Of a stretch of 64,000 nucleotides of DNA, positions 23,829-49,360 are shown one piece after another. Position numbers and translations under genes: made by a program. Origin of the DNA: Schmidtea polychroa (Eukaryota). The DNA lies in contig CM097887.1 of assembly GCA_044892525.1 (NCBI GenBank), positions 51,584,001-51,648,000 of the forward strand, written 5' to 3'. How positions within the stretch are numbered: the first letter of the stretch is position 1; each line of letters begins with the position of its first letter. The notes under the pieces were generated by a model. The model saw only the letters and a program-made list of their open reading frames with translations, did not search any database and was not told where the DNA came from.

Positions 23829-24669
23829 TGTTGGGGTTAGAGCAAAAACAAAATAAATTTCACATGGTACCAGAAAGCAGAACAAAAATTGGTAAAATCA
23901 ATATAAGTACAAAATTAATTAAAATTTAATGAAAATTAAAAATCAATATTGAACGGGGGTATCGGGTATGGTTGAATGCCAAATTGTTAGACGAGGTTAG
24001 AAAGCATAATAAAAATGTAATAGGGTGATCATAGAAAAACTTAATAAGGAAAAACAAATTAATTAAAATTAATTAATCTGTAATGGAAAGCCCGAGCCAA
24101 TGGAAAGCCCGAGCCAATGGAAAGCCCGAGCCAATGGAAAGCCCGAGCCCATGGGAAACCCGAGCACTGAAGAAAACCCGATGCGCAGTGAGACCCGAGA
24201 CACCAGATAAGGTAATAATAGTTCGATTTATAATTTCAGGGTAAACAAATTAAAATAATTATCAAACCTTTCAATATTAACTTAGGGTGCCCGGGGAAAC
24301 AATTAATTTGAATTTGCTAGATAATTGGCCTCTTAGACACATTATAAAAGGAGAGCTTAGAAATGAGCAAGCCGCCATTTGGTCGAAGAGAAAAAGGAAA
24401 AAGCTAAACAGAAAATCCAGCAAGGACAAGTCAAAAGAGGAAATTTGTGAATTATAAAGAAGCTAGACTCGTACAAGAAAAGGTAATTGCCCCTTGGGTT
24501 CTATACCTTAACGAGACAAATTTGAATTGAGAAAAAGGTGCAAATAGTGACAAATTGTAATTGTGATAAAAATCAAATAAAGTTATTTTGTGTTGAGTTT
24601 CCATTGATTTGGTAAAATAAGAGCACGAGGAGTCAGAGAAAGGACCGACTTACAAATAAAAACTCAACA
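23829..24669 (+). repeat. 5' LTR (841 bp)
   Basis: Begins TGTTGGG and ends CTCAACA (terminal inverted repeat). The first ~340 bp are near-identical to 37727-38040. AATAAA at ~24577. Internal 17-bp tandem repeat. Confidence 0.95.
24082..24166 (+). repeat. 17-bp tandem repeat within the LTR (AATGGAAAGCCCGAGCC x4 plus one degenerate unit)
   Basis: Directly visible. The 3' LTR has only 2 units plus the degenerate one. Confidence 0.95.
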
Positions 24670-24672
24670 TTT

Positions 24673-24690
24673 TGGTGAGCCCGACGTGAT
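24673..24690 (+). promoter_or_regulatory. Primer-binding site complementary to tRNA-Trp
   Basis: TGGTGAGCCCGACGTGAT lies 3 nt after the LTR end. It differs by one base from TGGTGACCCCGACGTGAT, the complement of the vertebrate tRNA-Trp(CCA) 3' end. Confidence 0.88.
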
Positions 24691-25095
24691 CAAGTCGGCA
24701 GTGGATATTGTGGAAAAGTGAAAAGATAAAATTTAATATAATTGAAAGTTGAATATAATTGCCGAGATATAAAGTTGAAATTAAATTTGTTAAAGAGAAA
24801 TTAAATTGAAAAAGAAAAAAAAAGAGAAATTGAACAAATTGTGCAGTTGAAATAAAAGAGTGAAAGTTAACAAAATTTAAAAGATATTAAAATAAAGTTG
24901 TGGAAAAGTTTCAAAAATTTATAAAAACTATTATTGGAAATTAATTCAAAATTAAAACAAAAGGTAAAGTTAAAAATTGTAATTTTTTAAAATTTAGACG
25001 AGAAACAGTTGTCCAAGAGAAATTATACAATCTGAGAAGTAAAAAACACTTGGAAAATATGGACGAGCAACTCAAATATCAATGAACAAATCCCA

Positions 25096-25437
25096 GTGTC
25101 TACTACTCAAGCGAACAATGGAAATGATTATGCCAGTTGTCAAAAATTACCAGTTGAGCAATATGGAGGAGATCCAGTCGAATTTGTTGACTTTATGGCA
25201 GATTATTACATGTATGCTACAGCTTATGGATGGAGCCAAGCAACTATGGTACAACGCCTACCATTATATTTAAAAGGAGCTGCGCGAGAGGCTTGGCAAC
25301 AGATTGATAAACGACCTATAGCAAATGATTGGACAAGATTGAAAGATGCGTTGGCAGCCAAGTTGATCGGAGGAGATATAAAGAGAATGATGCGTAAAAG
25401 TTTTACAGTCGAGTGCAAAAGCCCGATGAATCTATAA
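25096..25437 (+). CDS. gag: Gag N-terminal/capsid segment; frameshifts into the next ORF at ~25395
   Basis: 'FVDFMADYYMYATAYGWS...LPLYLKGAAREAW...WTRLKDAL' is a retrotransposon capsid motif. Restoring one A in CGTAAAAG joins it to 'FYSRVQKPDESISEF'. Confidence 0.88.
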   Translation: MSTTQANNGNDYASCQKLPVEQYGGDPVEFVDFMADYYMYATAYGWSQATMVQRLPLYLKGAAREAWQQIDKRPIANDWTRLKDALAAKLIGGDIKRMMRKSFTVECKSPMNL

Positions 25438-27284
25438 GTGAGTTTGCTTATCATTTAACTACTCTTGCAGAGAAAGCGTTCGAAGTAAAGCCAGATCAAG
25501 AAGAAGTGGCAAAGCAAGTCAAAGAATTACTTCAGGACCAATTTTTGACAGGAGTCAAGAAAGAAATCAAAAAGGCTTTGTGTTTTGTTGATTTTACAAA
25601 TTTTGATGACTTGATTAGAAAAGCCATGAGAATTGAAATGAATCTTAAAACGACTCAGTCAAAGGCGGAATCATTTGCGATTATCAATGAGCCTAGAGAT
25701 AGATATATAACCCCAGTCAGCGATAACTTGCTTCAAAGATCAACCAGTCCATCTCCCAAGTTCAGAGTGAAATTTGAACCAAGAAAGTCAACAGACAGTC
25801 CAAATGAGGAAAGAGAAAGAACTCTTCAATGCAGTCATTGCCAGAGAATAGGTCATCACATAAATCAATGCTGGTTTAAAAATAACATTCGAAGAAGCCC
25901 TAGTCTGGTTCAGTGTGATTACTGTCAAAGAAAAGGACATAGCAATAGCCAATGTTGGTTCAAAAATAACGAACAACGTAGTCCAAAGGGAATGCGGTCA
26001 GAATGGTTGAAAAGTAATGGTGGTAAAAGTTTTAACAGAACGAATATCAGTAACCAGAGAACTAATGATAACATACAATGCTATAATTGTGGAAGGAAAG
26101 GACATGTCACTCGAAATTGTTTTGCAAGATCCAGATCTCCATCAACATCACCCTCACCGCAAAGAGACAGAGTTAACCTACAAGGCCAAATCCAATGTCA
26201 TTCCTGTAGAGGCTATGGACATATGGCTAGATCTTGTCCAAAGAGTAATAATATATTTCAAAGGCCGATATTAAAGAAGACGAGATTTCAGAAAGACAAA
26301 TCGCAATCTGACAATATAGCTTTTGCGCAAACAGATGATTTTAACGAGAGGATTGAAAATGAGATAAAGCAGATGAGTAGACGCTTGGATCGATTAATGT
26401 GCAAATTCGAATCTGACGAAGAATTGAGTAACCACATGATTTATGAGTCGCAATCAGAAGGATCAGAGACAGATTCTAAAGAGAAATTGGATAAAGAAGA
26501 CATAGAAAGAGAAAAAGTAACAATGATTATGCTGAGGATCAACAAATTTATTGAAGAGAGAGCAACAGAAACATCTAAAGTAATCTCATCGCTAAAGGAA
26601 TATAGTCAAATGACACTGAGCATACGAAAATTGAAAAATGAAATTGAGTTATGTGCCGATTATTATGATACAAATTTAAAAGACGAAAAGGAAATTGAAA
26701 ATGTGATGAAAATATTTGGAAAAACGTATCGAGAAAGTACATGGTTAGATTTTATGTTAATTAATGTTTTAGATGAAAAGGAGAAAGATGTAGCTTGCAT
26801 TCGGTGTGAAGTAGGAGATTGTGTAGAGGATTTAAAGAATAGATCAGAAGAAAATAATGGGAAACAGATAATAGAATTGAAGTTTAAAAATCGATGCTTA
26901 CGCAATGATGAGTTTTTAATTGATTGTGGTTTTATACCAGGAAATAAAAATAAAGTGGAGATAGCAAAAATGACAAGATGTTATGAAAATGTAAAAAGTG
27001 ATCTACAGAAAATTGTAAATGAGCTGAGAGAAGCTTTTGATGAGTGGAATAAAAATGCAATTGATGAAAAGTTGAAATTGGTAGAGGAAACGGAATTTGA
27101 CGAAAATAGTAAATTAGAAATTGTAAATGTAGTACGTCCATACATATATAAAAACTCGAAATATAAAGAAATATTAAAAGGTTTATTACGAAAATTTGGA
27201 AAAGAGATTAGAGAGACCAGGATAGAATTGAAACCATTTGTAATAGCATTAGATTATAAAAATGAAGGAAAACAGAGTATATAG
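25413..27284 (+). CDS. gag: Gag capsid C-terminus, four CCHC zinc knuckles and an uncharacterised helical extension
   Basis: 'QKPDESISEFAYHL...DQFLTGV'. Knuckles CSHCQRIGHHINQC, CDYCQRKGHSNSQC, CYNCGRKGHVTRNC and CHSCRGYGHMARSC (25830-26237). About 350 further aa follow with no recognised domain. Confidence 0.88.
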   Translation: MQKPDESISEFAYHLTTLAEKAFEVKPDQEEVAKQVKELLQDQFLTGVKKEIKKALCFVDFTNFDDLIRKAMRIEMNLKTTQSKAESFAIINEPRDRYITPVSDNLLQRSTSPSPKFRVKFEPRKSTDSPNEERERTLQCSHCQRIGHHINQCWFKNNIRRSPSLVQCDYCQRKGHSNSQCWFKNNEQRSPKGMRSEWLKSNGGKSFNRTNISNQRTNDNIQCYNCGRKGHVTRNCFARSRSPSTSPSPQRDRVNLQGQIQCHSCRGYGHMARSCPKSNNIFQRPILKKTRFQKDKSQSDNIAFAQTDDFNERIENEIKQMSRRLDRLMCKFESDEELSNHMIYESQSEGSETDSKEKLDKEDIEREKVTMIMLRINKFIEERATETSKVISSLKEYSQMTLSIRKLKNEIELCADYYDTNLKDEKEIENVMKIFGKTYRESTWLDFMLINVLDEKEKDVACIRCEVGDCVEDLKNRSEENNGKQIIELKFKNRCLRNDEFLIDCGFIPGNKNKVEIAKMTRCYENVKSDLQKIVNELREAFDEWNKNAIDEKLKLVEETEFDENSKLEIVNVVRPYIYKNSKYKEILKGLLRKFGKEIRETRIELKPFVIALDYKNEGKQSI

Positions 27285-27337
27285 AAGAACATTGGTGTAC
27301 CAAGGTTGGTAAATTACGAAAGAGAGCCGCTGAAAGA

Positions 27338-27856
27338 TTGGGAAAGGATGGAATTATTCAATTGATATTTAAAAGTGAAGAATTAGGTGACGATGAATAT
27401 TTATACGATTGTGGGTTTATACCTCAAGAATTAGATGAAGACGGATATTTATGTTCAGATACAGGATATTCAATAAATTGTGTAATAGTAATCAAAAATC
27501 AGATATCAAATAAAGTATATGAGTCCGACAGGTCAAATAATGAGATAGAAAGGGATGATGAAAATGAAAGAAGAGTTGAAAATGAAGGTGTACTAGATAA
27601 CAAGGACATAGGAACTAATGATAAAGATAAAAGTATAATAACAGAAGTATTAAAGGAAGGGCAAGTAACCAAAAGTGAAATGAATAGTGAAATAAAGACA
27701 AAAAAGCCTAGAACTTTGTATGAAATTAAAAAGAGCCGGGTGAAGTCAGAATTAGAAGTTGATGAGACAAAAAAGTTATTAAAGAATTTAGTTAAAATAG
27801 TATATCCAATGTTCGAAATAAAAGTGGATACAAGTGCGAATTGGGAGACACAGTGA
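27338..27856 (+). CDS. Accessory segment with the second 'DExLxDCGFIP' repeat; probably a frameshifted continuation of the gag ORF
   Basis: 'IIQLIFKSEELGDDEYLYDCGFIP' parallels 'IIELKFKNRCLRNDEFLIDCGFIP' at 26868-26939. Adding one A at ~27270 joins the two frames. Confidence 0.65.
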   Translation: MGKDGIIQLIFKSEELGDDEYLYDCGFIPQELDEDGYLCSDTGYSINCVIVIKNQISNKVYESDRSNNEIERDDENERRVENEGVLDNKDIGTNDKDKSIITEVLKEGQVTKSEMNSEIKTKKPRTLYEIKKSRVKSELEVDETKKLLKNLVKIVYPMFEIKVDTSANWETQ

Positions 27857-27884
27857 ATGGAATGGAAAAGAAACTTCCTAGTGT

Positions 27885-29627
27885 ATGCAGAGATTTGTTG
27901 AAAATGATGACTTTTGTAATAGAGGAGTCATGAAAACTTTGACGAAAAATGGAATTGATAAAGAAGTAGTACTAACAAGCTTAACATATGCAGTTTTAGA
28001 GATAGGAGCTCATAAGAAAATGGAATCAGATGAATTAGAGAATTTGATAGATGCAGCTGCTCGAGTTTTAAATGAATATTTAATGAATTGGATAAAAAGG
28101 AATGGAGGTTGGGTCAAAGTGGTAAAAGTGCTTACGATAAATAAAAATAACAAAATTAATATACCTCATAAATCGCTAAACGGGAGAGTTAGCTCAATAT
28201 TGAGAAAAACGATGGTATTTCCATGGGTAATGTTTATGATAATTGTTTTGTGCGCAATAATTACTCAGACAACCTGTATGACTGCATATGATTGTTCACA
28301 AACGGAAATGGGAAAAATTTATTCGGTAGTAGATATGTCAGAATGTTCGGATGTATACCCGAGAAAACTAAAGATTGAAAAAGATGTAAAATATCATGTA
28401 TATCAAGAATCTGATTTAAGACGAACGAAAGTTCGAGAATGTATAGTTAAACATACTACATTTATATTTTATTGTGGGAAGTGGAGCCATACTTCATTGA
28501 TAAAGATGTATACAATCCCAAGGCCAGTGGAAGTTATGCCAGAAAATTGTTTAGCAGCTTTTCAAACAGAAGAATTGAAAATAAGTTCGGAAATTAAACT
28601 GAAGGCAAAAATAAATCATAGGACGAGAGAAACGGTGGTTACGAAGGGATTAATGAAGCAAGACGGAGATTGTGAAGGGGAACCGTACAAAGTCAGTGGT
28701 AAGATTATTCAAAAAGCAGTGGTGATAGAAGAATATCTAACGGAATTGAGAGAATTTGAAGGAGCTTTTGATGATGATACGGGGAAGTTACAGACCCACC
28801 CATTTTGTAATATGAAACACAATAACTGTCAAACGGGGGAATCAATTCTTGTTTATGAAGTAAGAACTAATGTATGTAACTTAGCGCATTTAAAAACGAT
28901 GAATTTCAAAGAAATTAGTGGAGAGCAGTTTAGGGAAAGGCCTGACAATATTAATGTAAATTATGGAGTAAATATGACAATCAGATCAACGCCCGTTTGG
29001 ACAAGAAAAACAGCGACTGTATTAATGTCAATAATTCCGATGGACGCCATGCGTTTTATATTAAAGGAAGTTACCAATAAATGTGGTCAGACGGTATACT
29101 CCACAAATTACAAAGGAGTTTACGTATCAACAGTAATAGTACAGGAAGCTAAAACTAGAATTCATACGGGGGATATTAAATTAACCCACTATTTTAACAA
29201 TAAAATTGATTACTTATTTCATTATAGTCAGAACACCATGGACAATATCTATCGAGAAATGATCTTAAATAATTGTAAATTAAATAAAGAAATACTTCGA
29301 AATCGAATGGCAATGGCCATCACCAACCCAAATTTGGTTGCACCCATGTTAATGTCAGAAAATGGAGTGTTTGCGAGAATCTTCGGAGAAGCTTTATACA
29401 GTTATAAATGTAAGGAAGTGTCAGTAAAAATAATGAAATACGAAAAATGTACTAATGAATTGCCAGTTAGCGTCGATGGGAAGATACGATTTATGGAACC
29501 AATAACACGGATATTACTTGAAGAAAACATAAAACCAAAATTACTCCAGTGCAATAGATTGCTAGCCCCGTTATACCGTTTGGCACCAGATTCTTGGATA
29601 GCATTACCCGATCACCGGATAAGTTAG
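27885..29627 (+). CDS. env: Bcl-2-like domain, hydrophobic signal/TM segment and chuvirus-like envelope glycoprotein ectodomain
   Basis: aa 51-80 'LENLIDAAARVLNEYLMNWIKRNGGWVKVV' match helix 6/BH2 of the Bcl-2 family. aa 110-131 are hydrophobic. The ectodomain begins 'TAYDCS...YSVVDMSEC...ECIVKHTTFIFYCGKWSHTS...NC...KQDGDCEG', the cysteine pattern of chuvirus-type glycoproteins. Confidence 0.82.
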   Translation: MQRFVENDDFCNRGVMKTLTKNGIDKEVVLTSLTYAVLEIGAHKKMESDELENLIDAAARVLNEYLMNWIKRNGGWVKVVKVLTINKNNKINIPHKSLNGRVSSILRKTMVFPWVMFMIIVLCAIITQTTCMTAYDCSQTEMGKIYSVVDMSECSDVYPRKLKIEKDVKYHVYQESDLRRTKVRECIVKHTTFIFYCGKWSHTSLIKMYTIPRPVEVMPENCLAAFQTEELKISSEIKLKAKINHRTRETVVTKGLMKQDGDCEGEPYKVSGKIIQKAVVIEEYLTELREFEGAFDDDTGKLQTHPFCNMKHNNCQTGESILVYEVRTNVCNLAHLKTMNFKEISGEQFRERPDNINVNYGVNMTIRSTPVWTRKTATVLMSIIPMDAMRFILKEVTNKCGQTVYSTNYKGVYVSTVIVQEAKTRIHTGDIKLTHYFNNKIDYLFHYSQNTMDNIYREMILNNCKLNKEILRNRMAMAITNPNLVAPMLMSENGVFARIFGEALYSYKCKEVSVKIMKYEKCTNELPVSVDGKIRFMEPITRILLEENIKPKLLQCNRLLAPLYRLAPDSWIALPDHRIS

Positions 29628-29690
29628 AACTCCAGATAAATTGGAATTAATCATTTAGAATATTTAGTGAACTTTACATCCCTAAATTAA

Positions 29691-30206
29691 ATGGCACAAC
29701 TAGGTTTCTACGCAAGCGAGGATATAGAAGAAGCTCAAAGAAATTTATTATTTCCATCAAAGAAAGAACGGGTGATATCAGAAATGATTGATACAATATT
29801 ACCAAACGGAGAAAGTAAGGTTAATTATGAATATCTCCTAACGCCAGATCATTTCAAAAAAGCAACGTACAAAACGATGGAAAAGATTTGGGGAAAATTT
29901 ATGTTCTTAGGACAAGCGTGTGCTGGTTTGATTGGCATCTATGTGATCGTAGTAACAATAAAGGTGATACTATCTCAAATTTTATCTGCTCATAGAATAT
30001 ATATAATATCCGGATGGTCATGGAAAATAATTATTGGTTGTATTCCGTTTATAGCAAGATTTTTTATTAATCATCATCAATATAAAGAAATGGCGAATGT
30101 GAGAGCACAGAGAGCACTTTGTGTGAATCGAGGGACAGAAATAGTGGCAATAACAACAACAATGACAATGGCAGAAACGAGCAAATGTATTTTAGAAAAG
30201 AAATAA
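29691..30206 (+). CDS. env: Envelope glycoprotein C-terminal part with transmembrane segments
   Basis: Same frame as 27885-29627, after a short disrupted stretch. Hydrophobic 'FMFLGQACAGLIGIYVIVVTIKVILSQIL' and 'IYIISGWSWKIIIGCIPFIARFFI'. Confidence 0.75.
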   Translation: MAQLGFYASEDIEEAQRNLLFPSKKERVISEMIDTILPNGESKVNYEYLLTPDHFKKATYKTMEKIWGKFMFLGQACAGLIGIYVIVVTIKVILSQILSAHRIYIISGWSWKIIIGCIPFIARFFINHHQYKEMANVRAQRALCVNRGTEIVAITTTMTMAETSKCILEKK

Positions 30207-31873
30207 TGAAAAGCGAGGTAAAACCAGAGTCACGGTGCCTACTAGAACAGATGCCAAAACATAAAGGAATCGACACTCTCTCAAAATGGTATACACCGGT
30301 ATTCCTTCCAACAGCACCAGCATATCCAAGTGCAAGGCTAAAAGAAATGAAACCAGTAGAACATATTAAACGAGAAGCCGAAAAGATTGAACCAACAAGT
30401 GCTGAAATAGAACGGAAAAACATGCTCGGATTACCATGTAGTTATGCGTTGATGACAATAGGAAATAGAGGCAAACAACCTCGAACAAATATACTATTTA
30501 ACGAGAGAAAGGTCAAAGCCTTGTTAGATTCCGGTTCCAGTCATACTATAGTGTCAGATAAACTGTTGACAAGGGAAGAGAGAGCAAAGATGAAACCAAC
30601 GAATAAAATTATTAAATCAATGTCTCACAATGTACTGAATATAATCGGGAAGCTAGAAGTCAAATTAATTATTGGTAACCAAGAAATAACACATTATGTG
30701 TCAGTAATGAGTAAAAGCCCTGTTGAATGTCTAATTGGTATGGATGTTATGGAGCAACTGCGAGGAATTGCGCTGGATCTGACAACAGGAAAATTAATAA
30801 AGGGACAATTATATACAGTTGCAAATAAAGCAAGAGAAGTTGTTTTAAATCAAACGTTGGAAATACCAGCAAGAAGCGAAATAATATGTTATGCTAGTGT
30901 AGCAAACACGTCAGATGACGAATGTGTTTTCGAACCCAGTCGAAAACTAGTAGAGAAATACGAATTGCCAATGTGCGACGATATAGTACAAGTAAAAGAT
31001 CAGGCAGTGCCAGTGAGAATGGCTAATCTTAGCACAAAATCTATCCAAATGAAACCTAACAAGAAGTTAGGAAAGTTAATGAAATTTAAAACAGAACAAG
31101 CCCAAAAATTACCGAGAAACATTAAAATTTATAGAAAACCACAAGTGACGAGCAACGATTTGACAGAAGCACAAAAACAACAGTTTATGGCATTATTAAA
31201 AAGGTACAAAAGAGTGTTTGCAAAGCACGAGTATGATTTGGGACTTACCCAGGTGATCGAACATGAGATACCACTACTCGATGAAACTCCTATTAAATTA
31301 CGACCGTATAGAATCCCTTATATACATCAAGAGGAAAGTGATAGACAGATAAAAGCGATGAAAGAGTTTGACATAATAAGAGACAGTTCATCACCATTCT
31401 CATCCTCAATAGTAGTAGTCAAAAAGAAAGACGGTGATTTACGGTTTTGTGTGGATTATCGAAAATTGAATCAGGCTACAAGAAAAGACACCTACCCTTT
31501 GCTAGTTCCACAGGAAATGTTTGATCAAATGGGAGAAGTACAATTCTTCACAGTAATCGATTTGAATAAGGGATATAATCAATTTAAAGTAAAAGAAGAA
31601 GATAGAAGGAAAACGGCATTTTCAGACGGTAAAGGTTTGTACGAATTCAATGTGTTACCATTTGGCTTAACGGGAGCACCAGTGACGTTCCAGCGAGGTA
31701 TGAATTTTGTGTTAAGAGACATCCCACACGCACTAGTTTATATTGATGATATAATAATATTTTCGAATAACTTTCAGGAACATTTGGAAGATGTAGAAAC
31801 AGTATTCCAAAAATTGTTAAAGGCGAATTTAAAAATAAACCCTCAAAATGTGAGTGGGGGATATCTGAGGTAG
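30119..31873 (+). CDS. pol: Aspartic protease and reverse transcriptase (frameshift near the RT end)
   Basis: 'ALLDSGSSHTIVS' (PR, D at 30527). RT motifs 'LRFCVDYRKLN', 'IDLNKGYNQ', 'PFGLTGAPVTFQR' and 'YIDDIIIFS'. One A is missing in CCTCAAAATG (~31848). Confidence 0.95.
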   Translation: MCESRDRNSGNNNNNDNGRNEQMYFRKEIMKSEVKPESRCLLEQMPKHKGIDTLSKWYTPVFLPTAPAYPSARLKEMKPVEHIKREAEKIEPTSAEIERKNMLGLPCSYALMTIGNRGKQPRTNILFNERKVKALLDSGSSHTIVSDKLLTREERAKMKPTNKIIKSMSHNVLNIIGKLEVKLIIGNQEITHYVSVMSKSPVECLIGMDVMEQLRGIALDLTTGKLIKGQLYTVANKAREVVLNQTLEIPARSEIICYASVANTSDDECVFEPSRKLVEKYELPMCDDIVQVKDQAVPVRMANLSTKSIQMKPNKKLGKLMKFKTEQAQKLPRNIKIYRKPQVTSNDLTEAQKQQFMALLKRYKRVFAKHEYDLGLTQVIEHEIPLLDETPIKLRPYRIPYIHQEESDRQIKAMKEFDIIRDSSSPFSSSIVVVKKKDGDLRFCVDYRKLNQATRKDTYPLLVPQEMFDQMGEVQFFTVIDLNKGYNQFKVKEEDRRKTAFSDGKGLYEFNVLPFGLTGAPVTFQRGMNFVLRDIPHALVYIDDIIIFSNNFQEHLEDVETVFQKLLKANLKINPQNVSGGYLR

Positions 31874-32406
31874 TCTATGTTGGTCAAATTATATCCCGAA
31901 GTGGATTACAGCCAAACCCCGAAAATGTAGAAAAAATTAAAAATTATCCAATTCCAAAAAATGTAGATCATGTTAGACAATTTCTCGGATTAGCCAGTTA
32001 TTATAGAAAATTCATTAAACATTTTGCGCATGTAGCACAACCCTTGAACATATTATTAAAAAAGCAGACTCAATTTAAATGGACAAAAACACAACAGGAA
32101 GCGTTCGAATCGCTGAAAGAAAGTTTGATTAAAAAACCAATATTAAGATGTCCAAATTTTAAAATACCATTTATCCTAATGACAGATGCGAGCAATTTTG
32201 CGTTGGGCGCAGTGCTAGGACAACGGGTTGAAGGAGAAAGAGATCATGTCATCGCATATGCGAGTAAAACTTTGAAACCGCATGAAAAGAATTATTCTAC
32301 GATTGAAAAAGAAACGTTGGCATTAGTTAATGGAATAACTACATTTCAACAGTATTTAGTTGGAAGAAGATTTGTTGTCTTTACGGACCATAACCCTTTA
32401 CAATGA
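31850..32406 (+). CDS. pol: RT thumb/connection and RNase H; ends at a premature TGA (W codon) before integrase
   Basis: 'QFLGLASYYRKFI', 'LMTDASNFALGAVLGQ', 'NYSTIEKETLAL' and 'TDHNPLQ*LMKH'. In frame with ORF 32410. Confidence 0.92.
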
Positions 32407-32409
32407 CTT

Positions 32410-34596
32410 ATGAAGCATAGAGATTCAGCAAGTAAGTTGATTAGATGGTCAATTGCACTACAGGAATATGATTTTGAAATTAAATACCGTACGGGTAAAT
32501 CAAATGCAAATGCAGACACACTGTCGAGAATCCCTGAAGAAAATAATAATAATGATGAAAAAACGAACTATAATGATACAATATTTATGGTAATTAAATC
32601 AGCAAATAATATAAAGGAATTACAATATGATCAAGAAAATAATGAGGAACTAAATCAATTACGGAAAAATGCAGTAACAATTAAAAAGGAGAGTGATTGG
32701 AAACATATTGTTGAGGAAAAACATAAATATATTATCCACGAGGGTTTATTAAAATGTGTAAAAAATGAAAATTTACTAATTATAGTTCCAGCAAAACATC
32801 GAGAAACATTATTGTTGATTTACCACGATGGAGCACTAGGAGGGCATTTATCAGCTCGAAAAACATTATCAAGATTGAAATTGAAGTATTATTGGGAGAC
32901 AATGGAACAAGATGTCAAACAACGGTGCCATACTTGTAGAGTATGCTTGACAAGACGAAATACAGGAAGGAAAATAAAAGTTCCACTAAGACCTATGCCG
33001 GTGCCAGCAGCGCCAATGGAAATGACAGCAATGGACATTGTCGGTCCATTGCCGGAAACAATAAATGGCAATAAATATATTGTTGTATTTTGCGACTATC
33101 TAACTAAATGGCCAGAAGCATATGCCATGCAAAATCAAAAGGCAGAAACAGTTGCAAAAATTTTAGTAGAAAACATTATTTTCCGATATGGAGCACCAGA
33201 TAAATTACTTACAGATCAAGGAACGAATTTTCAAAGTGAATTATTTAGTTCGATATCGGAGCTATTTGGTATATTAAAACTTAGTACATCACCATATCAT
33301 CCACAAACAGATGGCCTAGTAGAAAGGTTTAACGGAACATTAATTAATATGATATCATCTCATGTGAATCGAAAACAAAGAGATTGGGATTTATTTATCA
33401 AACCATGTTTATTCGCATATCGAAATGCAGTTAATGAAAGCACTGGTGAAACACCCTTTTATCTTATGTATCTACGGCGAAATAATATGCCAATTGATTT
33501 GAAATTTCAAACACCTATATTGCAGTATATGGATACATCCGATTATAAAGTAATTATGCATGAGAGATTACAGTCAGTGTGGGCTCAAGCTGGTTTAAAA
33601 ATAAGACATAGCCAGGAAACGTATAAAAAATCCTACGACAGGAAAGCACATGCTCATAATATTAATATAGGAGATTTAGTCTATGTGAATAAACCAGAAC
33701 CAGAAAAGGGCTTGTCACCAAAGTTACAACGACCGTTTAAAGGACCGTATATTGTATGTGATACAACAGAAACCAACCTGAAATTACGTCCACAAAATAA
33801 TAAAAAGGCTGGGACAATTATAGTTCATGCTAATCGTTGTAAGAAAGTGCCGGCAATGGAGAGTGATAGATATCCGTTAACATCGAAAAAGAACAAATCA
33901 GTAGAAGAAAAAGTGGTCAAGCAAAAAGTTATTAAAAACCCAGTACCCTTAGGATATACCACTAAGGTCTTATTAATAACAACAATAATGCTACTAAATG
34001 TTTTGGGAACAAATGCAGGTCGATCTTTTCCAAAGTATGCAATAAAAAGGGTCCCATTATTGGAGAAAATTCATATATATTCAACATGTACCCAAATAGT
34101 ATGGTTTTATCTGCGTGGGTCAACGGAAGAAATAGAAATAAGTAATTTATTAAATCACTTTGACCCACCTGTAAAGTTGAATTTCAATAAAAATATTTTC
34201 GTGGCTCGTCAATTAACAATCAATTATGAATACCCTTGGCAAATAACAGAGTTACTATTTCAAAATAATAATACAAAAATTCGTAATATAATCCAAATTG
34301 AAATATTAACAAAAGATTTAAACAGTCTGGTTTCAATAGAACCAGTAGTGAATGGAATCGACGTATATTGGGAACCCCACGAATCCAAAAAAGTGAAATT
34401 AATCTTCCAAAATAATATTATCGATACATTAAACATCAGAAAACCCTTTGTCCATTATAATAATTTAAAATTAAATCAAACGTATGATATCGTTGTGCAA
34501 TATTATGAAAAGCTTTTGCGTGAAAATGGTACCGAAATCGATAACCAGTGGGTAAAAATTGATTCTATTCGACAATCCACAAAATTGGAAAATTAA
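32410..34596 (+). CDS. pol: Integrase (HHCC, DDE, GPY) fused in frame to a signal-like hydrophobic segment and an FN3-like ectodomain
   Basis: 'YHDGALGGHL...CHTCRVC', 'MDIVGP', 'TDQGTNF', 'VERFNGTL' and 'RPFKGPY'. Then 'VLLITTIMLLNVLGTNAG' (33967-34020) and 'GIDVYWEP...NNLKLNQTYDIVVQ'. Confidence 0.9.
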   Translation: MKHRDSASKLIRWSIALQEYDFEIKYRTGKSNANADTLSRIPEENNNNDEKTNYNDTIFMVIKSANNIKELQYDQENNEELNQLRKNAVTIKKESDWKHIVEEKHKYIIHEGLLKCVKNENLLIIVPAKHRETLLLIYHDGALGGHLSARKTLSRLKLKYYWETMEQDVKQRCHTCRVCLTRRNTGRKIKVPLRPMPVPAAPMEMTAMDIVGPLPETINGNKYIVVFCDYLTKWPEAYAMQNQKAETVAKILVENIIFRYGAPDKLLTDQGTNFQSELFSSISELFGILKLSTSPYHPQTDGLVERFNGTLINMISSHVNRKQRDWDLFIKPCLFAYRNAVNESTGETPFYLMYLRRNNMPIDLKFQTPILQYMDTSDYKVIMHERLQSVWAQAGLKIRHSQETYKKSYDRKAHAHNINIGDLVYVNKPEPEKGLSPKLQRPFKGPYIVCDTTETNLKLRPQNNKKAGTIIVHANRCKKVPAMESDRYPLTSKKNKSVEEKVVKQKVIKNPVPLGYTTKVLLITTIMLLNVLGTNAGRSFPKYAIKRVPLLEKIHIYSTCTQIVWFYLRGSTEEIEISNLLNHFDPPVKLNFNKNIFVARQLTINYEYPWQITELLFQNNNTKIRNIIQIEILTKDLNSLVSIEPVVNGIDVYWEPHESKKVKLIFQNNIIDTLNIRKPFVHYNNLKLNQTYDIVVQYYEKLLRENGTEIDNQWVKIDSIRQSTKLEN

Positions 34597-35178
34597 CCAA
34601 ATCGTATTATTTTACAATATAATAATCAAAAATGGATAGCCACACGACAAGCGATAACCAATAAAAAAGTGGAAATTTACTATTGCGGAAAACTGCAAGC
34701 TACATTGCAAGGTAATATTACATCTAAAATATTAATATTTCAGCAAATACGTTCAAAGTCAACTTCAAAAATTGTGATTGTAAAAATTAATTATTATCAA
34801 CGTGCTTTTCATCCCGATCAATGGAAAATCGTTCTAGTGGAAAGTAAATCTATTCGAGTACAATTTGACACAATTGAGGCTGAAAGCTCAAAATACATGT
34901 ACAATTCATCAACCAATGTGATTAATCAACTCATAAATGACATTAATTCTTCTTTTATTAATGGAAACCAAATTCCAAGAAACAAAACTACATTCTCATT
35001 ATCAAATGATTTTAAAAATACTTATGTTATTTTGTCATCTATCATCATCAGTGTGACACCATTTTCCATTATCATTCTTCTCACTCTACTGATTTACTTT
35101 CAAAGACTTAACAGACAATATGAATGTCAATCCAAGATCTCAAAACCTTGGATTGTCTACGAGGAAACATGGGTTTAG
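34597..35178 (+). CDS. C-terminal half of a type I membrane protein (ectodomain, TM, short tail ending ETWV); in frame with integrase after one TAA
   Basis: Same frame as 32410-34596 and open from 34597. TM 'VILSSIIISVTPFSIIILLTLLIYF' (~35026-35100). Tail 'KPWIVYEETWV*'. Confidence 0.72.
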   Translation, partial: PNRIILQYNNQKWIATRQAITNKKVEIYYCGKLQATLQGNITSKILIFQQIRSKSTSKIVIVKINYYQRAFHPDQWKIVLVESKSIRVQFDTIEAESSKYMYNSSTNVINQLINDINSSFINGNQIPRNKTTFSLSNDFKNTYVILSSIIISVTPFSIIILLTLLIYFQRLNRQYECQSKISKPWIVYEETWV

Positions 35179-35562: not shown

Positions 35563-36989
35563 ATGGAACAAATCCAATGGACAAGAGCAATTTATGACGG
35601 ATATTTGAAGATGCACCGCAACCACGTGAGACAAGATGCCATCGCCATCAATGACAACCGGAAAATACCAAACTACTTGAGGGTGGATGACAGAAAATGA
35701 AAACCCGAATTTTTAAAGTGAGCCGGAAATCGGTGAAAATAATAGAAGAAGATGAAATCAAGGATGGAAATGAGTACATGCTACACGTGATCAAAGGGAA
35801 AGTGGAGGTGATAGACGACGGACAAAAAGTCTTTTGGGAATTACACCAAGGATCATCGTGGAAACTGCAGAAAGAAACCTTGAGGAAGAAGTTGAGAGCA
35901 TCCAATGAAGATTCAAGAGTTGTTTTGGAAACACGAATCCCGAACGAGGAAAATGAAATTCCACAAACCACTTCAAAATTGCCAGATGATCCAACAATGC
36001 TTCCAATTACTACAGAAATGCTGAAAAGAAGATTGTCATTTATTCGAAGGGAAATGAGTCTGGAGGAGATACGGAACCAAATCGTGTTTATTGATGCAGA
36101 ATATGGAACATCAGAAAATAATAAAATGATTCCGTTGTCAATAGCGATGATGAGTTACGAAGGAAAAATAATTAAAAATTCATATTTGACACCAAGAGGA
36201 AGATTGCGTCATTTCAATTCCAGCATTCATGGTATCACAGAGATTGCCAGTAGAAACCAATGCGACCAGTATACGGAGATGCGAAAAGTTCAAAAACTAA
36301 CTGTTGGAAAAATTTTAATGGGACATGATCTTCATGCAGAATCGGAACATTTGAAAATCTGGACAAATCAATTGTACGGAATTAGGGATCTAGCAACAGC
36401 ACAGGCACTCCAACTGAAAGGAATAACAAGGAGAGGAGAATTCTTTTAACTCAAAACAGTGGTTGAAGAAATATTTGGAGAACAAACACAAACTGGTATT
36501 CACTCAGCATTGGAAGATGTCAAAAATGTACGGAGAGTGTACAGGAAAATTGAGAATTTATGGGAAGATGATGTAAAAATCCAGAAAATAGTCCCGTCAA
36601 AGAAATATTCTTTGGCAGAATATCAAAACCTTTATGCGGTGGACAAAGTACCAACAACGAGTGGAACATACTTCGAGATAGTTGAACAAGTCGATCTAAC
36701 AATTGAAGAACAAATGGAAATTGACGAAGCACCGTTGAAATGGGCAACTGAAGAATATTTGGATCCGATCAATGAAAGCCTCGAAATGATAATAAGTTTA
36801 TCTATTCACAGAATTCCGGCATCATTTGAACATGGGCCTATTCTTCATTTAGAGGATAGAAAAAGAAAATCAACAACAAAAATCGAAGCCAGCGAGTCCA
36901 TCATGGTGAATGGAATAGTCTATTATCGGGAGAAAACATATATCCGCTACAAGAGTGAGGCGGGAAAAATAGAATTGAAGATTGATTGA
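35563..36989 (+). pseudogene. 3' accessory ORF with an ISG20/REX4-like DEDDh 3'-5' exonuclease (ORFs 35697-36449 and 36459-36989, in frame, one TAA between them)
   Basis: ExoI 'IVFIDAEYG' (36081), 'YLTPRGRLRHFNSSIHGITE', ExoII-like 'KILMGHDLHAE', 'IRDLAT' and ExoIII '*LKTVVEEIFGEQTQTGIHSALEDV' (36501-36518). Probable frameshifted N-terminus from the ATG at 35563. Confidence 0.85.
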
Positions 36990-37726: not shown

Positions 37727-38040
37727 TGTTGGGGTTAGAGCAAAAACAAAATAAATTTCACATGGTATCAGAAAGCAGAACAAAAATTGGTAAAATCAAT
37801 ATAAGTACAAAATTAATTAAAATTTAATGAAAATTAAAAATCAATATTGAACGGGGGTATCGGGTATGGTTGAATGCCAAATTGTTAGACGAGGTTAGAA
37901 AGCATAATAAAAATGTAATAGGGTGATCATAGAAAAACTTAATAAGGAAAAACAAATTAATTAAAATTAATTAATCTGTAATGGAAAGCCCGAACCAATG
38001 GAAAGCCCGAGCCCATGGGAAACCCGAGCACTGAAGAAAA
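37727..38040 (+). repeat. 3' LTR, truncated after ~314 bp
   Basis: Near-identical to 23829-24176, apart from two substitutions I can see and two fewer 17-bp units. Identity stops abruptly at 38040. Confidence 0.92.
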
Positions 38041-38064
38041 ATTCATAATCACTGATTATATTAG

Positions 38065-39524
38065 TGTTGGGCTAAGAATGATGCGAGATCTGAATAAAAC
38101 TTCGTAATGAAAAGTAATTAAATAACTAAATGAGTAAGAGTAATCCAAAATAATTGGTAGAAGGTCGAGACGAAGCCTTAAACCACAGAAATTTCAATTA
38201 TTTATAATTAAGCTGTACAAGAAACATAAAGTCATAAAAATATCCTGAAAGTAGACACAGCCCAGCAATAATAATCAGGTTACCCAAAAGGTGAGACTGA
38301 GATAAAAAGCGATAGCTTTGGCAAGCAGGAAAAGAGAAAAACCACCAAAATAAAAAATAAAAATCAACCAATCAAATTGATTGAGATCAAAATTAAAAAT
38401 AAATGAATAAAACTATCAAAACGCAAGGGTGTGACCGAATCATATTTTCTAAGCTTCAAGAAAAAAATCTACAAAAGGCCGACGTCTCGGCAGACTACCA
38501 CCACTCATTTACAACAAAAAGAAACCGAGTTTTAAAAAGTTATACTTTATTCAACAGTTATGAAATTGTTGAGGTTTTAAAAGAAAATTATTTAAATATA
38601 TAGTTCAGATTAAAATGAAAACCGAAATTGAATGGCGGTCAAGCAGAGAAGTAATGGCAAAGAAAGATATGATAAAAACAGAACTATAAAAGGGTACAAT
38701 CAGACATGAAATGGAAAAATGCGCAAACCTGAGGAAAGGTAACTAAGTGAAAAGTTATCGAAATTGAAGCTGGAAAACTGGAGAGGGGTAGATTAGGGGA
38801 TGGTGAAGAAAACAGTGAGCAAGAAATTGTTAGAAAATGTTTAGAAAGGGTCGTAAAGCAGACAAATATGAAAAAACGTAAAATATTAATTAATTAATTA
38901 ATTGGTTAATGGGAAACCCGAACTAAGGGGAAGTCCGAGCGATGAAGAAACCCCGAGCACGGCAATCTGGAAGGGTAAACAAACGAGGAATTCAGAGGGT
39001 AATTATCCAAACAACCGGATAAAAGAGGGTAAACAAAAGAAAGGGAATTACTTAAAGGCTCAACAGAAATAACTAATTAGAGAATGATATCTAAGGAAGT
39101 CAAAACCAATTAGGTCAAAAACGGAGCAATCACAACAATTATGGGAGTATATATGGAAACTCAAAATTCATATAATCGGCGGTAGCCTTAGGTAGGGAAG
39201 AAGAAACAGACGATAGGAGTTCGAGGAATAAAATAAAAGAAGAAAAAGAATTATAAGAATCGAGGAGTCGGAAAGCAATATTAAAGGAGTTCGGATCAGA
39301 GAGAGGAATCAAACAAAAAGGTGAAACTTATTTTTAAATCGTCCAGAGCGGAGTTCGATCGGAAATTGTAAGAAAATTGTGGTTAACTAGAAGTGTCGTT
39401 ATTTATCGAGAATTGTAAATTTTCTATAAAAAAAATATACGTTGGGAGTTTGTGTTTATTAATTTTTGGAACACGTGGAGTCAGAGTAACCAACAGTTGA
39501 TTTTTGGTATCATAAAACCAAACA
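38065..39524 (+). mobile_element. Diverged LTR of a related Gypsy family
   Basis: Begins TGTTGGG. Contains AATTAATTAATT..TAATGGGAAACCCGAA (~38900) and a GGAGTCAGAG..CAACA-type end. The end is ambiguous (39495 or 39524) and no TSD was found. Confidence 0.6.
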
Positions 39525-40010
39525 AAATGTACATAATGAGTGGAATAGAGAAAAATCTCGACAAAAAAATAAACGGGAAAATTCGGTTATAAATAATAAA
39601 ATGTGAAATATGGACAATAGCAAAGCAGGGCGTAATACCTTCTATGGTCAGTCTGTGAATCCAGAGGCGTGTCAGGGCATTAGGAGTCCCTAAAATTAGG
39701 CTTGTCTTTCGCTGGCGACCACCCACTAATGTACAGCACCACCCTCGCTTGCAACGGTTGCCTTGCGGATTTATCAATAGTTATGCGGTATTGCGAAACG
39801 GAAAAGGAGGTGGAATAAATTACCACTATCAAAGGGAGCAAGGAAATGGTTTTTCCCCAAATCGTGGTGTCAATCCTGAAAAAGTAAAAAGATTTTGACA
39901 TAAAATGTATTCAATTTTGGTGTAAATAAAGTTATTTTGTTGGTATTGGAATCTTATTTACTTAATTATTGAATAAGGAGAGTCGTATTGAGAGCTAATT
40001 CCAGTCAACA
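39525..40010 (+). mobile_element. Fragment ending like a third LTR
   Basis: AATAAAGTTATTTTGT (also in the main LTR), followed by GGAGAGTC...GTCAACA ending at 40010. Confidence 0.4.
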
Positions 40011-40099: not shown

Positions 40100-41566
40100 C
40101 AGGGTTTTAAGTTGTATTTTGACAAGCATAATATATTTTTTGACAATATTAACCAGATAATAAACAATATTAAATCTATTATTGACAATATATACTAAAT
40201 TAATAACAAAAAAAGCTTTATTAATGACATTATAAATATATTTTTAGACATTCTATGCATGGCTCGACAAATAAATCAATTTCCTGCTTCCATAGCAAAT
40301 AATACAGAAATAGTAGTCGAAAGTGATAACACTGCCGAACCAGCTATCCGTAACACTTTTCGAGTACAACGAAGAAATAATACAATTTCAAATGCTGATA
40401 GAGATCGTGTTATTACAGCATACGATGACGGGACTTCAATAGTTGATATTTCTCGAATTTTATCAATAAAAAGAACTACAATTTATGGTATTTTGAAGAA
40501 GTACCATAACACTGGAGTGGTGGAAGCTGATAAGAGAGGCGGCGATCATCCACTAAAATTGACAGAGGATCAAAAAAATCAAGTAAAAGAGTGGGTTGAT
40601 AATAACTGCCAATTATCGTTGAAAGTTTTAGCGGAAAAGGTATTTACAGAGTTTCAAATTAGAATATCCACAACTTATGTATATAATTTATTATCTCGTT
40701 TTCATTATTCAATGAAAAGACTTCATTTAATTCCAGAGAGAAGAAATTCAACAGAAGTAATTGAAACCAGAAAAGAATATGCACTTAAATTCTCTTCTAT
40801 ACTAAGTATATATTCAGAACAAGAATTAATATTTATTGATGAGGTGGGATTCAACGTTTCTATGAGAACAACAAGAGGAAGATCACAAATAGGCACTCCT
40901 GCAACATTAAATGTACCGACCATACGATCAAGAAATATATCTATAGCATGTGCAATGAACAAAAATGGGTTATTGTTTTATAAATCTTTTAATCGGGCCC
41001 TCAATAAAGAGAAGTTTATCGAATATATAACAGAGCTAAAGGAAGTTTTAATTGATAAAGAGATTCACAGATGCGTAATCATAATGGATAATGTTAAGTT
41101 CCATAAAAGTCCTGAAGTGCTTAGCGCTATAAATAATGAAAATACAACTGTAAAATTTCTTCCGCCGTACTCAACTTTTCTCAATCCTATTGAGAACATG
41201 TTCAGCAAGTGGAAGGAAATCACCAAAAGAACCAACACCAGAAATGAAGATGATCTTATGCGAGCAATTGAAAATGGAAGTACCCTAATATCTTCACAAG
41301 ACTGTAGTAATTATGTGCGAAATATGTGGTCATATATACCAAGATGTATTGAGGGAGAAATTATTCTTAATTAAATGTCACTTAATTTTTTTGTCATTAC
41401 ATTTTTTGTAATATATTACATTAATATATGTATTATTGTCATTTATATTATTTAAATTGGCATTTATTTTATTAATATTGTCATTAATGTATTTAACATT
41501 GTCAAAGATTATATTAAAATATTCAAAAAATATGTTATGTTTGTCATAATACGACTTGAAACCCTG
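40100..41566 (+). mobile_element. Tc1/IS630-like DNA transposon, full length
   Basis: 44-bp TIRs (CAGGGTTT...) with 5 mismatches, TA on both sides and repeated TGACAA/TTGTCA subterminal motifs. Confidence 0.92.
40259..41374 (+). CDS. DD34E transposase, intact 371 aa ORF
   Basis: HTH 'TSIVDISRILSIKRTTIYGILKKY', 'FIDEVGF' and 'IIMDNVKFH...FLPPYSTFLNPIEN'. I count 34 residues between the second D and E. Confidence 0.93.
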   Translation: MARQINQFPASIANNTEIVVESDNTAEPAIRNTFRVQRRNNTISNADRDRVITAYDDGTSIVDISRILSIKRTTIYGILKKYHNTGVVEADKRGGDHPLKLTEDQKNQVKEWVDNNCQLSLKVLAEKVFTEFQIRISTTYVYNLLSRFHYSMKRLHLIPERRNSTEVIETRKEYALKFSSILSIYSEQELIFIDEVGFNVSMRTTRGRSQIGTPATLNVPTIRSRNISIACAMNKNGLLFYKSFNRALNKEKFIEYITELKEVLIDKEIHRCVIIMDNVKFHKSPEVLSAINNENTTVKFLPPYSTFLNPIENMFSKWKEITKRTNTRNEDDLMRAIENGSTLISSQDCSNYVRNMWSYIPRCIEGEIILN

Positions 41567-44549: not shown

Positions 44550-46817
44550 CACCTATCCCCCGATTTACACGGTACTTGTTTTACACGTTTTCGCTTTTAC
44601 ACGGTTTTTCAAATAAGTTTTTTTTTGTTTTTATCGCACTCTACTAAATGCTACTGTGTTAGAACACGTGCGCTGTGTACACATCTCACGGGGAATCCCT
44701 AGCTTATGTGCTGACTTGCTGCACATGCACACTGTGTCTGTATTTCTTCGCATAAAATTAAAGTTTTAAAGTTTAAAGTGAGTGCATAATTTAGATTACA
44801 TATTATAAATTAACATAAATTAAAAACAATTATAGGCTTATAATGTCGAAAGAAGTTAAAAGAAAAGTTATTTCTTTAGAAACTAAAATCGAAATTTTGG
44901 ATCGCTTACGAAAGGGAGGTAGAGTAGTAGATGTTGCAAAATCATATAGCATGAACGAAGCTACAATAAGAACTATTAGAACAAATGAAAACACAATTAG
45001 AAAGAGTGTTGCAGCTGGCAATACCACGAGTATGGGCACAACATCATACACCAGAAATATCGCAATGGAAAAAATGGAGAAAGCGTTAATGCTTTGGATA
45101 GTACCCCTTGATACGGCCGCTAAAACAAATAAAGCAGTACGAATTTACGAAAAAATTGTAGAGCAATTCCCATCTTCTTCTTCAACTGAAAAGAAGCCAA
45201 ATTTTTTGGCAAGTCATGGCTGGTTCAAAAGATTTAAAATAAGACATTCTTTACACAGCTTAACATTAAAAGGTGAACTGGCTTCTGGCGACGTAGATGC
45301 AGCCCAAGAATATCCAGCAAATTTTGGAGAAATTATTAACGACAATTCATACACCTCTGATCAGCTTTTCAATGCTGATGAGTCAGGGTTATTCTGGAAA
45401 AAAATGCCTGAAAGGACTTATGTCTCAAAATTTCATAAATCGGCTAGTGGTCATAAAGCAGCAAAAGATCGCATAACAATTCTTTTCTGTAGCAATGCTT
45501 CAGGAGATTATATTATGAAACCATTAGTGATTAACAAATCAAAAGTGCCCCGTGCCTTTAAAGGAGTAAACATCAAAAATCTTCCCGTTTATTGGAGGGC
45601 TAATAAGAAAGCGTGGGTTACTGCTGCAATGTTGACTGAATGGTCTCATGAATGTTTTATCCCAGATGCCAAAAAATATTTAGGTTCAAAGGGATTGCCT
45701 TTTAAAGTGCTTTTGTTAATTGACAATGCGCCGGGTCACCCACAAGATCTAGAATATGAGAACTTTGAAGTAAAATTTTTACCAAAAAATAAAACTTCAT
45801 TATTACAACCATTGGACCAAGGCATAATTTCTACTTTTAAAGCTTTGTACATAAAACGAGCCTTTACATATATTTTGGAACAAATGGAGAAAAATGAATC
45901 TTTAACAGTTATTAGTGCTTGGAAAAATTTTACAATAATAGACTGTGTGAAGCATATCGCCTTATCATACACTGCGATTAAGCAAACAACGCTCAATAGC
46001 TGTTGAAAAAATTGTGGCCAAATGTAGTCAAAAATGAACATTCCATTTCAACGTTAAATGATGAATATTCGCAGATAGTACAGATGGCGCATTCATTGGA
46101 CGGAGAAGGTTTTGATGATTTTACTGATGATGATATCGCAGAGTTAATGGCTGATAAAGAACTAAGTGAGGATGATTTAGTTAACTTAGTTTGCGAAAGT
46201 GAGTCTGAAAAATCTGATGAAGAGGAATTAGTACCAGTAACATTCACTGCTAAAGTCATCCGCGAAGGACTCGCATTGGGGAGAAAGCTGGGTAATCATT
46301 TTATACAAAATGACACAAACGTAGAAAGGGCTTTACGATTCCAACGTGACATAAATCGCTGCTTGGCTCAATAAGAAGAAGTTTACAAAGATCTTACAAA
46401 AAATTCGAAGCAATTGTTAATAACCGATTTTATTACCACCTCTCAGAATGTAAATATTTCTGCTTCAAACATCGAATCGGCACAAATAACTTCGAGTGAT
46501 GAAAATGAATTCCAACCTTCGATTCCGAAAAAAAGAATGAGAGTAATTTCTGATAGTGATGAAGGATAATAAAACACCTTTGGTTTTATTTTTTGTTCTT
46601 CTGTTTAATGTATTGTAATTAAATAAAAAAACAGTGTTTCCGTAATATATTACATATTTTAACCTGTCAATGCATTTTATTTTTATTTCTGTGTACTCCT
46701 AAAAATATTGAAAAAAATCACAACTGTTAAATAGCAAAATTATGCATTTTCTGCAAGCTTTTCGATTTACACGGTTTTCTCAGGAACGTATCTACCGTGT
46801 AAATCGGGGGATAGGTG
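44550..46817 (+). mobile_element. Tigger/pogo-family DNA transposon nested in the Buster element
   Basis: Perfect 23-bp TIRs CACCTATCCCCCGATTTACACGG. TA TSD. Confidence 0.94.
44843..46571 (+). pseudogene. Tigger-like (CENP-B HTH plus DDE_1) transposase, disrupted
   Basis: 'KRKVISLETKIEILDRL', 'ASHGWFKRFK', 'FNADESGLFWKKMP', 'LLIDNAPGHP' and 'LQPLDQGII'. There is a 1-bp deletion at ~46005 (C-W-K-K-L-W-P) and a premature TAA at 46372. Confidence 0.9.
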
Positions 46818-48532: not shown

Positions 48533-49360
48533 GGAATAATCCTATTACACACTGTTTAATTAAGAACAAACTGTTTTAATTTATTATTTAATATTAATTT
48601 AATATTTAACCAAATTATTTATTTAAAATAAAAATGCCGCGAATCCAAAATATAACAAAACTTACGGAATTAATATACAACGATGAAGAGCTAATTGCAA
48701 CCAGATTTAAATCCGACAGTCTTTATGATGACTTGAAAAAATCCAAACTTGAAGTATTAGAATTTGTGGCTAGCTTAGGACTTATTAAAAATACCATGGA
48801 TTGTGAAATGTGCAATGCACACATGAAGTTAGTAAAAGCGAAAAGGCTAGTTGATGGTTATGTGTGGAGCTGCACACTCCCATGCCGAAAATCAACTTCT
48901 GTGCGATTCGACTCAATATTTTTCGATAGCAAGTTACCGCTAAAAGATTTGTTGATGACTATATTTTTTTGGTCAAAAAATCAACAACAAGATGAAATTT
49001 CTAATGATTTGACTTTAAATAAAAATACATTGGTCGAAAAATGTAAAGATCTTCGTGAATTGTGTGCGATGGGTTTGGAGGGATTCAACGATGTATTGGG
49101 GGGTATTGATGCGGACGGATCGAAAAAATTATATTTAGCGGGTTATTTAAGTGAGTTTTTGTTTCGTCGGAAGTGTGATAAGTTTAAGGTCTTCAATGAG
49201 ATTCTGCTGGTCATCCGGAAATGGTGGTAAATTATATTTAGGTTATTACTTGTGTATTATAATTTATAATTTGTATTATAATTTGCAATAAATATTAAAA
49301 CAGTTTGTTTTAAATAAAACAGTTTGTTTTTAATTAAACAGTTTATAATAGGATTATGCC
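48533..49360 (+). mobile_element. Merlin (IS1016/ISXO2-related) element, internally deleted
   Basis: TIRs GGAATAATCCTATTA.../...TAATAGGATTATGCC. 8-bp TSD AATTCACC on both sides. Confidence 0.88.
48634..49230 (+). CDS. Merlin transposase lacking the catalytic core (in-frame deletion)
   Basis: Zn ribbon 'CEMCNAHM...DGYVWSC..PCRKSTSVR.DSIF' and an HTH, then a direct jump from 'VLGG' to the C-terminal 'YLSEFLFRR'. Confidence 0.75.
   Translation: MPRIQNITKLTELIYNDEELIATRFKSDSLYDDLKKSKLEVLEFVASLGLIKNTMDCEMCNAHMKLVKAKRLVDGYVWSCTLPCRKSTSVRFDSIFFDSKLPLKDLLMTIFFWSKNQQQDEISNDLTLNKNTLVEKCKDLRELCAMGLEGFNDVLGGIDADGSKKLYLAGYLSEFLFRRKCDKFKVFNEILLVIRKWW

Follow-up and report, generated by a model that had tools for sequence, protein, structure and literature searches.

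How is an envelope glycoprotein that lies between gag and the protease of a Gypsy element expressed, where does it come from, and what would such an order mean for the way in which the polyprotein meets a membrane? These questions are raised by a window of Schmidtea polychroa DNA (the whole stretch analyzed, 64,000 nucleotides of contig CM097887.1), in which positions 23829 to ~38040 are a decayed Burro-like GAG-ENV-POL Gypsy LTR element of 14 kb belonging to an abundant family.

Layout and reading frame of the element

The features of the window copy, all on the forward strand, are as follows.

23829..24669 (+): 5' LTR, TG...CA, 841 bp, with a (TA)n run just upstream
24673..24689 (+): primer-binding site, adjoining the 5' LTR
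25063..26261 (+): gag, with capsid (Retrotrans_gag) and CCHC knuckles; frame break near 25400-25437
26319..27463 (+): helical region and ubiquitin-like domain in two units (Ubl 26772-26951 and 27275-27463); frame break near 27270
27719..28127 (+): Bcl-2-like domain with a BH2-like motif at its end; frame changes near 27820-27890
28188..28280 (+): internal env signal/anchor segment, with basic residues, a hydrophobic core, and small residues at -3/-1
28281..29861 (+): env ectodomain, chuvirus-type (predicted class III, gB-like), Cys-rich, assigned by Pfam and fold match; env-frame stops at 29625-27, 29637-39, and 29688-90
29862..30101 (+): env membrane-proximal region, transmembrane (TM) anchor, and a weaker hydrophobic stretch; break to pol at ~30086-30206
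30470..33792 (+): pol, with protease 30470-30799, reverse transcriptase (RT) 31217-31908, RNase H 32086-32418, and integrase 32776-33792; RT frame break at ~31810-31860, RNase H stop at 32404
33946..35178 (+): predicted second type I membrane protein in the pol frame, with signal 33946-34017, three FN3 domains predicted at 34018-34872, a TM segment, and the tail E-T-W-V; stop at 34594 inside the predicted FN3 region
35563..36989 (+): ORF2, with an ISG20/ISG20L2-like DEDDh exonuclease at 36051-36578; frame break near 35700, stop at 36447
37727..38040 (+): 3' LTR, truncated after ~310 nt, with a polypurine tract just upstream

Assignment to Ty3/Gypsy (Metaviridae) follows from the order protease-RT-RNase H-integrase with Gypsy-type domains, from the TG...CA LTRs, primer-binding site, and polypurine tract of the window copy, and from target-site duplications in sister-family copies, that of the window copy being unreadable with its 3' LTR truncated. 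The 5' LTR and the 3' LTR piece are 98% identical over 307 nt. We take the primer-binding site to be tRNA-Trp-like, and an identical sequence lies behind the 5' LTR in five copies of a sister family. In five copies of that family, the LTR pairs are 99.7-99.9% identical and flanked by 4-bp target duplications; these are 5 of 10 copy pairs examined, the duplication being unreadable in the other 5; the sister family spread recently. At loci L015 and L016 (L031/L032), copies 13,500 bp apart have identical env scores and one LTR in common, and the pair is either a tandem pair or an assembly duplicate.

The remainder of the window contains other repetitive DNA. Beyond the 3' LTR break, positions 38040-40000 hold different LTR-like DNA with 17-nt repeats (38891-38951), and similar repeats occur at 8584-8661 and, inverted, at 63920-63998. 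Three ORFs of 391, 395, and 206 aa (40199-41371, 44819-46003, and 48610-49227) look DNA transposase-like by eye, inverted repeats are present at 48533/49312 and 52778-53489, and pieces of a separate, divergent Gypsy protease and RT lie at 58337-59777.

Frame breaks interrupt gag, the Ubl region, the Bcl-2-like domain, env, the env-protease linker, RT, and ORF2 of the window copy, and stops fall in RNase H, the post-integrase part, and ORF2, so that the full polyprotein cannot be made from it. Related copies are better preserved. A genome search with the window env gave 2938 candidates, of which 90 were scored, and 19 of these 90 env matches are held by open frames of 3413-3442 aa. Two such frames carry gag, CCHC knuckles, both Ubl units, the Bcl-2-like domain, env, protease, RT, RNase H, and integrase in one frame, and in overlapping stretches of two such frames the frame runs on past the integrase to a C-terminal tail. 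Every one of the 30 closest env loci has a Bcl-2 match upstream, and 28 have a protease match downstream. Of the 28 of these loci evaluated for frame sharing, 15 have the env TM segment and protease in one stop-free frame, and 9 have the Bcl-2-like domain, env, and protease in one.

The uninterrupted copies and closest loci bear out the gag-env-pol order in one frame that a sequence-only reading of the window had proposed, and both the domain order and the single frame are observed. That reading missed the Bcl-2-like domain (27719-28127) just upstream of the leader. Its suggestion of a frameshift at the overlap of ~30090-30206 did not hold up: the break (~30086-30206) is found only in damaged copies, the 19 matches noted above sit in single open frames, and the overlap represents damage because intact copies keep the env TM segment and protease in one frame. 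We accordingly reject a programmed frameshift from env to pol. We likewise reject env as a separately inserted element, a possibility that the same reading had named as one to check, since env in close copies has no termini of its own and its Bcl-2 and protease flanks are kept across loci.

Several domains around env were assigned by weaker matches. Pfam ubiquitin matched the Ubl region with E values of 0.08 in one sister family and 2e-4 in another, both under the curated cut-off. PF00452 matched the Bcl-2-like domain at E 5e-4 in the window and 2e-5 in an uninterrupted copy, also under the curated cut-off, and matches of this domain to BOK/Bcl-2 in the PDB were weak. A conserved insert of ~115 aa without a Pfam match occupies the protease-RT interval (30800-31144), the position at which Burro has a dUTPase-like domain (PMC6431247).

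A predicted class III fusogen in a probably membrane-threaded polyprotein

Env shows its leader, the quoted sequence motifs, a Cys-rich ectodomain, and a TM region as first described, with the protease following at 30470-30799. By hydropathy, one of the "TM segments" reported behind the ectodomain is a strong TM segment, and the others amount to only a weaker hydrophobic stretch. The identification as a chuvirus-like glycoprotein was confirmed by Pfam PF24664 (Monjiviricetes_fusion), which matches both env pieces (E 1.7e-58 and 1.2e-20) far more strongly than chance would allow, and by structure prediction. A monomer model built from 117 sequences (pLDDT 91, pTM 0.71) has a gB/G-like multidomain fold with a 48-residue central helix. 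Compared with predicted models of viral proteins, it matched chuvirus or chu-like G best (Tacheng tick virus 4, E 1.7e-38; TM-scores of 0.57-0.69 for ranks 1-5), in line with that reading as far as viral proteins go. Rhabdo-like G models were also matched, and herpesvirus gB, again as predicted models, first appeared at rank 24 (E 3.5e-15, TM-score 0.26). A phmmer search of env against PDB sequences gave no match at E 10. Env is predicted to be a class III viral fusogen.

Between two families of the host genome, env is 82% identical with a pS of 0.72 and a dN/dS of about 0.04, a rough ratio with dS near saturation, which points to strong purifying selection on env. In the same two families, dN/dS came to 0.19 in the Bcl-2-like domain, 0.14 and 0.35 in the two Ubl units, and 0.29 in the post-integrase ectodomain. 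Saturation of dS affected the capsid, RT, RNase H, and exonuclease comparisons.

Hydropathy scans of two families showed one peak on each side of the ectodomain and none in the protease-RT-RNase H-integrase core. Inspection by eye places a hydrophobic leader ahead of the env start in each of the five families and in 12 listed database proteins, and a BH2-like motif lies ~45-75 residues ahead of the env start in all five families. From these features, it is reasonable to infer that the polyprotein would be threaded through the ER membrane. We propose that the polyprotein of ~3400 aa is probably processed in the ER to give three products: Gag held by a membrane anchor, a predicted class III fusogen still attached to Pol, and a second surface protein. 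Gag-Ubl-Ubl-Bcl2 would be synthesized in the cytosol until the first hydrophobic segment starts translocation and signal peptidase cuts after it. Because the BH2-like motif sits so close ahead of env, the leader would stay behind as the tail anchor of the Bcl-2-like domain and keep Gag on the membrane; a C-terminal tail anchor is the usual build of Bcl-2 proteins. The ectodomain would fold and trimerize in the lumen, and the env TM segment would halt transfer, such that protease-RT-RNase H-integrase would be made in the cytosol as a tail of env and then be freed from it by the element's own protease. A second signal behind the integrase would direct the three FN3 domains into the lumen, and the last TM segment would keep a short PDZ-type tail on the cytosolic side. 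Env would leave the cell on budding particles and fuse these with further cells of the animal, stem or germ cells among them.

Some hydropathy results count against this model. The weaker hydrophobic stretch behind the env TM segment exceeds the threshold in two database homologues (P0013 and P0018), and should it cross the membrane, Pol would end up on the lumenal side and the model would fail as written. The second signal passes the threshold in three of five families; it falls under the threshold in the window family's own copy, and both signals do so in a Burro1-like family.

A 1:1:1 ratio of Gag, Env, and Pol is unlike that of other retroelements, and given this ratio, extra RNAs or early termination may exist. 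An unusual equimolar output, together with a Met just ahead of the hydrophobic leader in four of the five families, would suit a version of the same element in which a distinct spliced or subgenomic RNA supplies most of the Env (or Gag) and the single frame is used chiefly for Pol. We consider this version unlikely, as the Met is missing in the fifth family and is not conserved in most database homologues, and as the frame is open on both sides of env in families only ~40% identical in env, which would be needless if Env were made separately. Three runs guessed to be RNA yield contigs that cover the element, and no GT..AG joint is listed for them; these contigs have no bearing on expression or splicing.

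Env may alternatively act as a cell-cell fusogen or as an adhesion or scaffold protein that is not on budded particles, with capsids crossing between fused or connected cells. The receptor-like build of the second membrane protein (FN3 array, TM segment, and PDZ-type tail) would fit cell junctions, and the entry mechanism of gB-type elements is described as unknown by Chary and Hayashi (PMC13524379). Gag, however, is predicted to be tied to the same membrane as Env, which fits budding, and we regard this alternative as quite unlikely next to cleavage of a single polyprotein in the ER followed by budding with Env.

Ancestry of env and relation to known elements

A sequence search with env matched 1353 representatives at E 0.001. 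The closest relatives are long proteins with 29-44% identity, in which env is followed by protease in 11 of the 14 scanned, and 3 of 10 stand-alone matches looked up are named viral glycoproteins with 24-27% identity. Polyprotein-embedded envs are 29-82% identical, versus 24-27% for the named chuvirus G proteins. A quick, unrooted tree places the polyprotein-embedded envs on one side of a branch (SH-aLRT 99), apart from the three named chuvirus G proteins. Of its 55 rows, five are families of this genome and 50 were taken from 153 database proteins, and 32 carry no label; the rows were drawn from top matches, and an unrooted tree gives neither donor nor direction. Taken together, the comparisons suggest that env was inherited within a deep clade of polyprotein-embedded envs, and Chary and Hayashi argue for ancient inheritance (PMC13524379). 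The claim of an independent capture from a negative-strand RNA virus is left unsupported by this placement, and it is very improbable that this Gypsy lineage recently captured a chuvirus G on its own and reads into pol by a programmed frameshift: chuvirus G proteins are the closest named relatives but fall in the lower identity range and group apart, and the frameshift is absent from 15 of 28 close copies.

Among the database homologues, P0013 is a 2627-aa env-pol polyprotein of the same kind that is annotated as a Flavobacteriaceae MAG protein and is likely animal DNA in a bacterial bin. Five others (P0009, P0010, P0011, P0012, and P0018) apparently have at least two protease-like units behind env.

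The gag-env-pol order, which had been put forward as unusual, is not new. Arkhipova and Yushenova (2019) described planarian Burro with Ubl, BCL2, and env in frame in the gag-protease interval and with matches of its env to mononegavirus fusion proteins (PMC6431247), and Chary and Hayashi (2026) reported GAG-ENV-POL elements with gB-type env in flatworms, nematodes, and bryozoans (PMC13524379). Like flatworm HSV/gB-type errantiviruses, the window element has env between gag and pol and an ectodomain with hydrophobic segments on either side. Its nearest catalogued counterpart, Smed_errantivirus_1 (Platyhelminthes_Rhabditophora), shares the GAG-ENV-POL order and the HSV/gB-type env and is a multicopy element of 45 copies with a region of ~14.8 kb (PMC13524379). 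Counted by eye, 199 of 251 residues (79%) of env domains I-II are identical between the two; their sequences differ, in keeping with a sister family or with the version found in a congener. A single polyprotein, Bcl-2, fibronectin, PDZ, and exonuclease all go unmentioned in the main text of that article, although its figures may differ. According to the same article, the nematode noncanonical ERVs of Sacco et al. (2022) also have env ahead of pol and belong to a different host-associated clade.

With the planarian Burro / GYPSM1 elements, the window element shares a single ORF with Ubl, a BCL2-like domain, and in-frame env. In contrast to the giant size of Burro (>30 kb, with an ORF1 of ~4900 aa), the window family measures 14 kb and ~3420 aa, its scanned parts gave no match to the Burro MATH, BIR, and ankyrin domains, and it has an exonuclease ORF2. 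The window element thus works like Burro but is not Burro1. After smedwi-2 RNAi, BURRO1 levels go up according to PMC8532177. A Burro1-like 4791-aa family with MATH, BIR, and ankyrin domains is present in the host genome. Downstream of its ORF1 (L093:1528-7973) lie ORFs with a TRAF zinc finger and MATH and with BIR and RING (IAP-like), along with two further ORFs largely without assigned domains. Chuviridae/Monjiviricetes G proteins (Tacheng tick virus 4, Lishi spider virus 1, and Wufeng shrew chuvirus 2) and the chuvirus-like envs of BEL/Pao elements share the Pfam family and predicted fold of env. Unlike env, chuvirus G is a stand-alone protein of ~660 aa with an N-terminal signal peptide, outside any Gag-Pol frame. 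The window element is therefore a sister family of a catalogued element, with a known and well-conserved layout; as such, it adds one copy to a layout in print since 2019, with a catalogue from 2026, and carries little weight alone.

The exonuclease and the membrane protein behind the integrase

The ORF2 exonuclease matches ISG20L2 at E 1.3e-11. Two families have its acidic and His motifs intact, a third has them altered, and one copy of a fourth family contained no exonuclease ORF. The N-terminal portion of ORF2 has no assignment.

Between integrase and ORF2, a TM segment and a tail ending in [ST]-x-[VL], which we take to be a class I PDZ-binding motif, close the frame in all five families (3419, 3437, 3334, 3058, and 4791 aa). 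Loci with this TM segment and tail in addition to the window are L032, L034, L074, L095, L071, and L092. Three database polyproteins that reach that far have at least two hydrophobic segments behind the integrase without a [ST]-x-[VL] tail. A structure model of the post-integrase protein was built from only four sequences, with a pLDDT of 73 for the best version against 40-52 for four others. It resembles tandem FN3 arrays at E 5e-9 with a whole-chain TM-score of about 0.25. ESM Atlas gave fn3 at 0.92 with a recognition of 1497, under its reliability mark, and Pfam gave no fn3 match. No homologue was found at E 1 among 1176 candidates, all of them proteins of 195-622 aa. Neither the main text of PMC13524379 nor section 7 of PMC6431247 describes this membrane protein; figures, Grohme 2018, Sacco 2022, or Repbase may mention it.

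The post-integrase protein may be an attachment partner of the fusogen. Extending this idea, we tentatively suggest a flavivirus-like plan, which is possible though doubtful, with four ER crossings, an env signal that doubles as the Bcl-2-like tail anchor, and the FN3 protein as attachment or sorting partner of a gB-type fusogen, as gD, gH, and gL are for herpesvirus gB. If true, this plan would give a Gypsy element an entry machine of two glycoproteins. A question in the literature is how gB-type elements get into cells when they lack the helper glycoproteins that herpesviruses have. The conserved post-integrase protein is a concrete candidate, and as planarians permit RNAi and imaging, the question of entry is testable in these animals.
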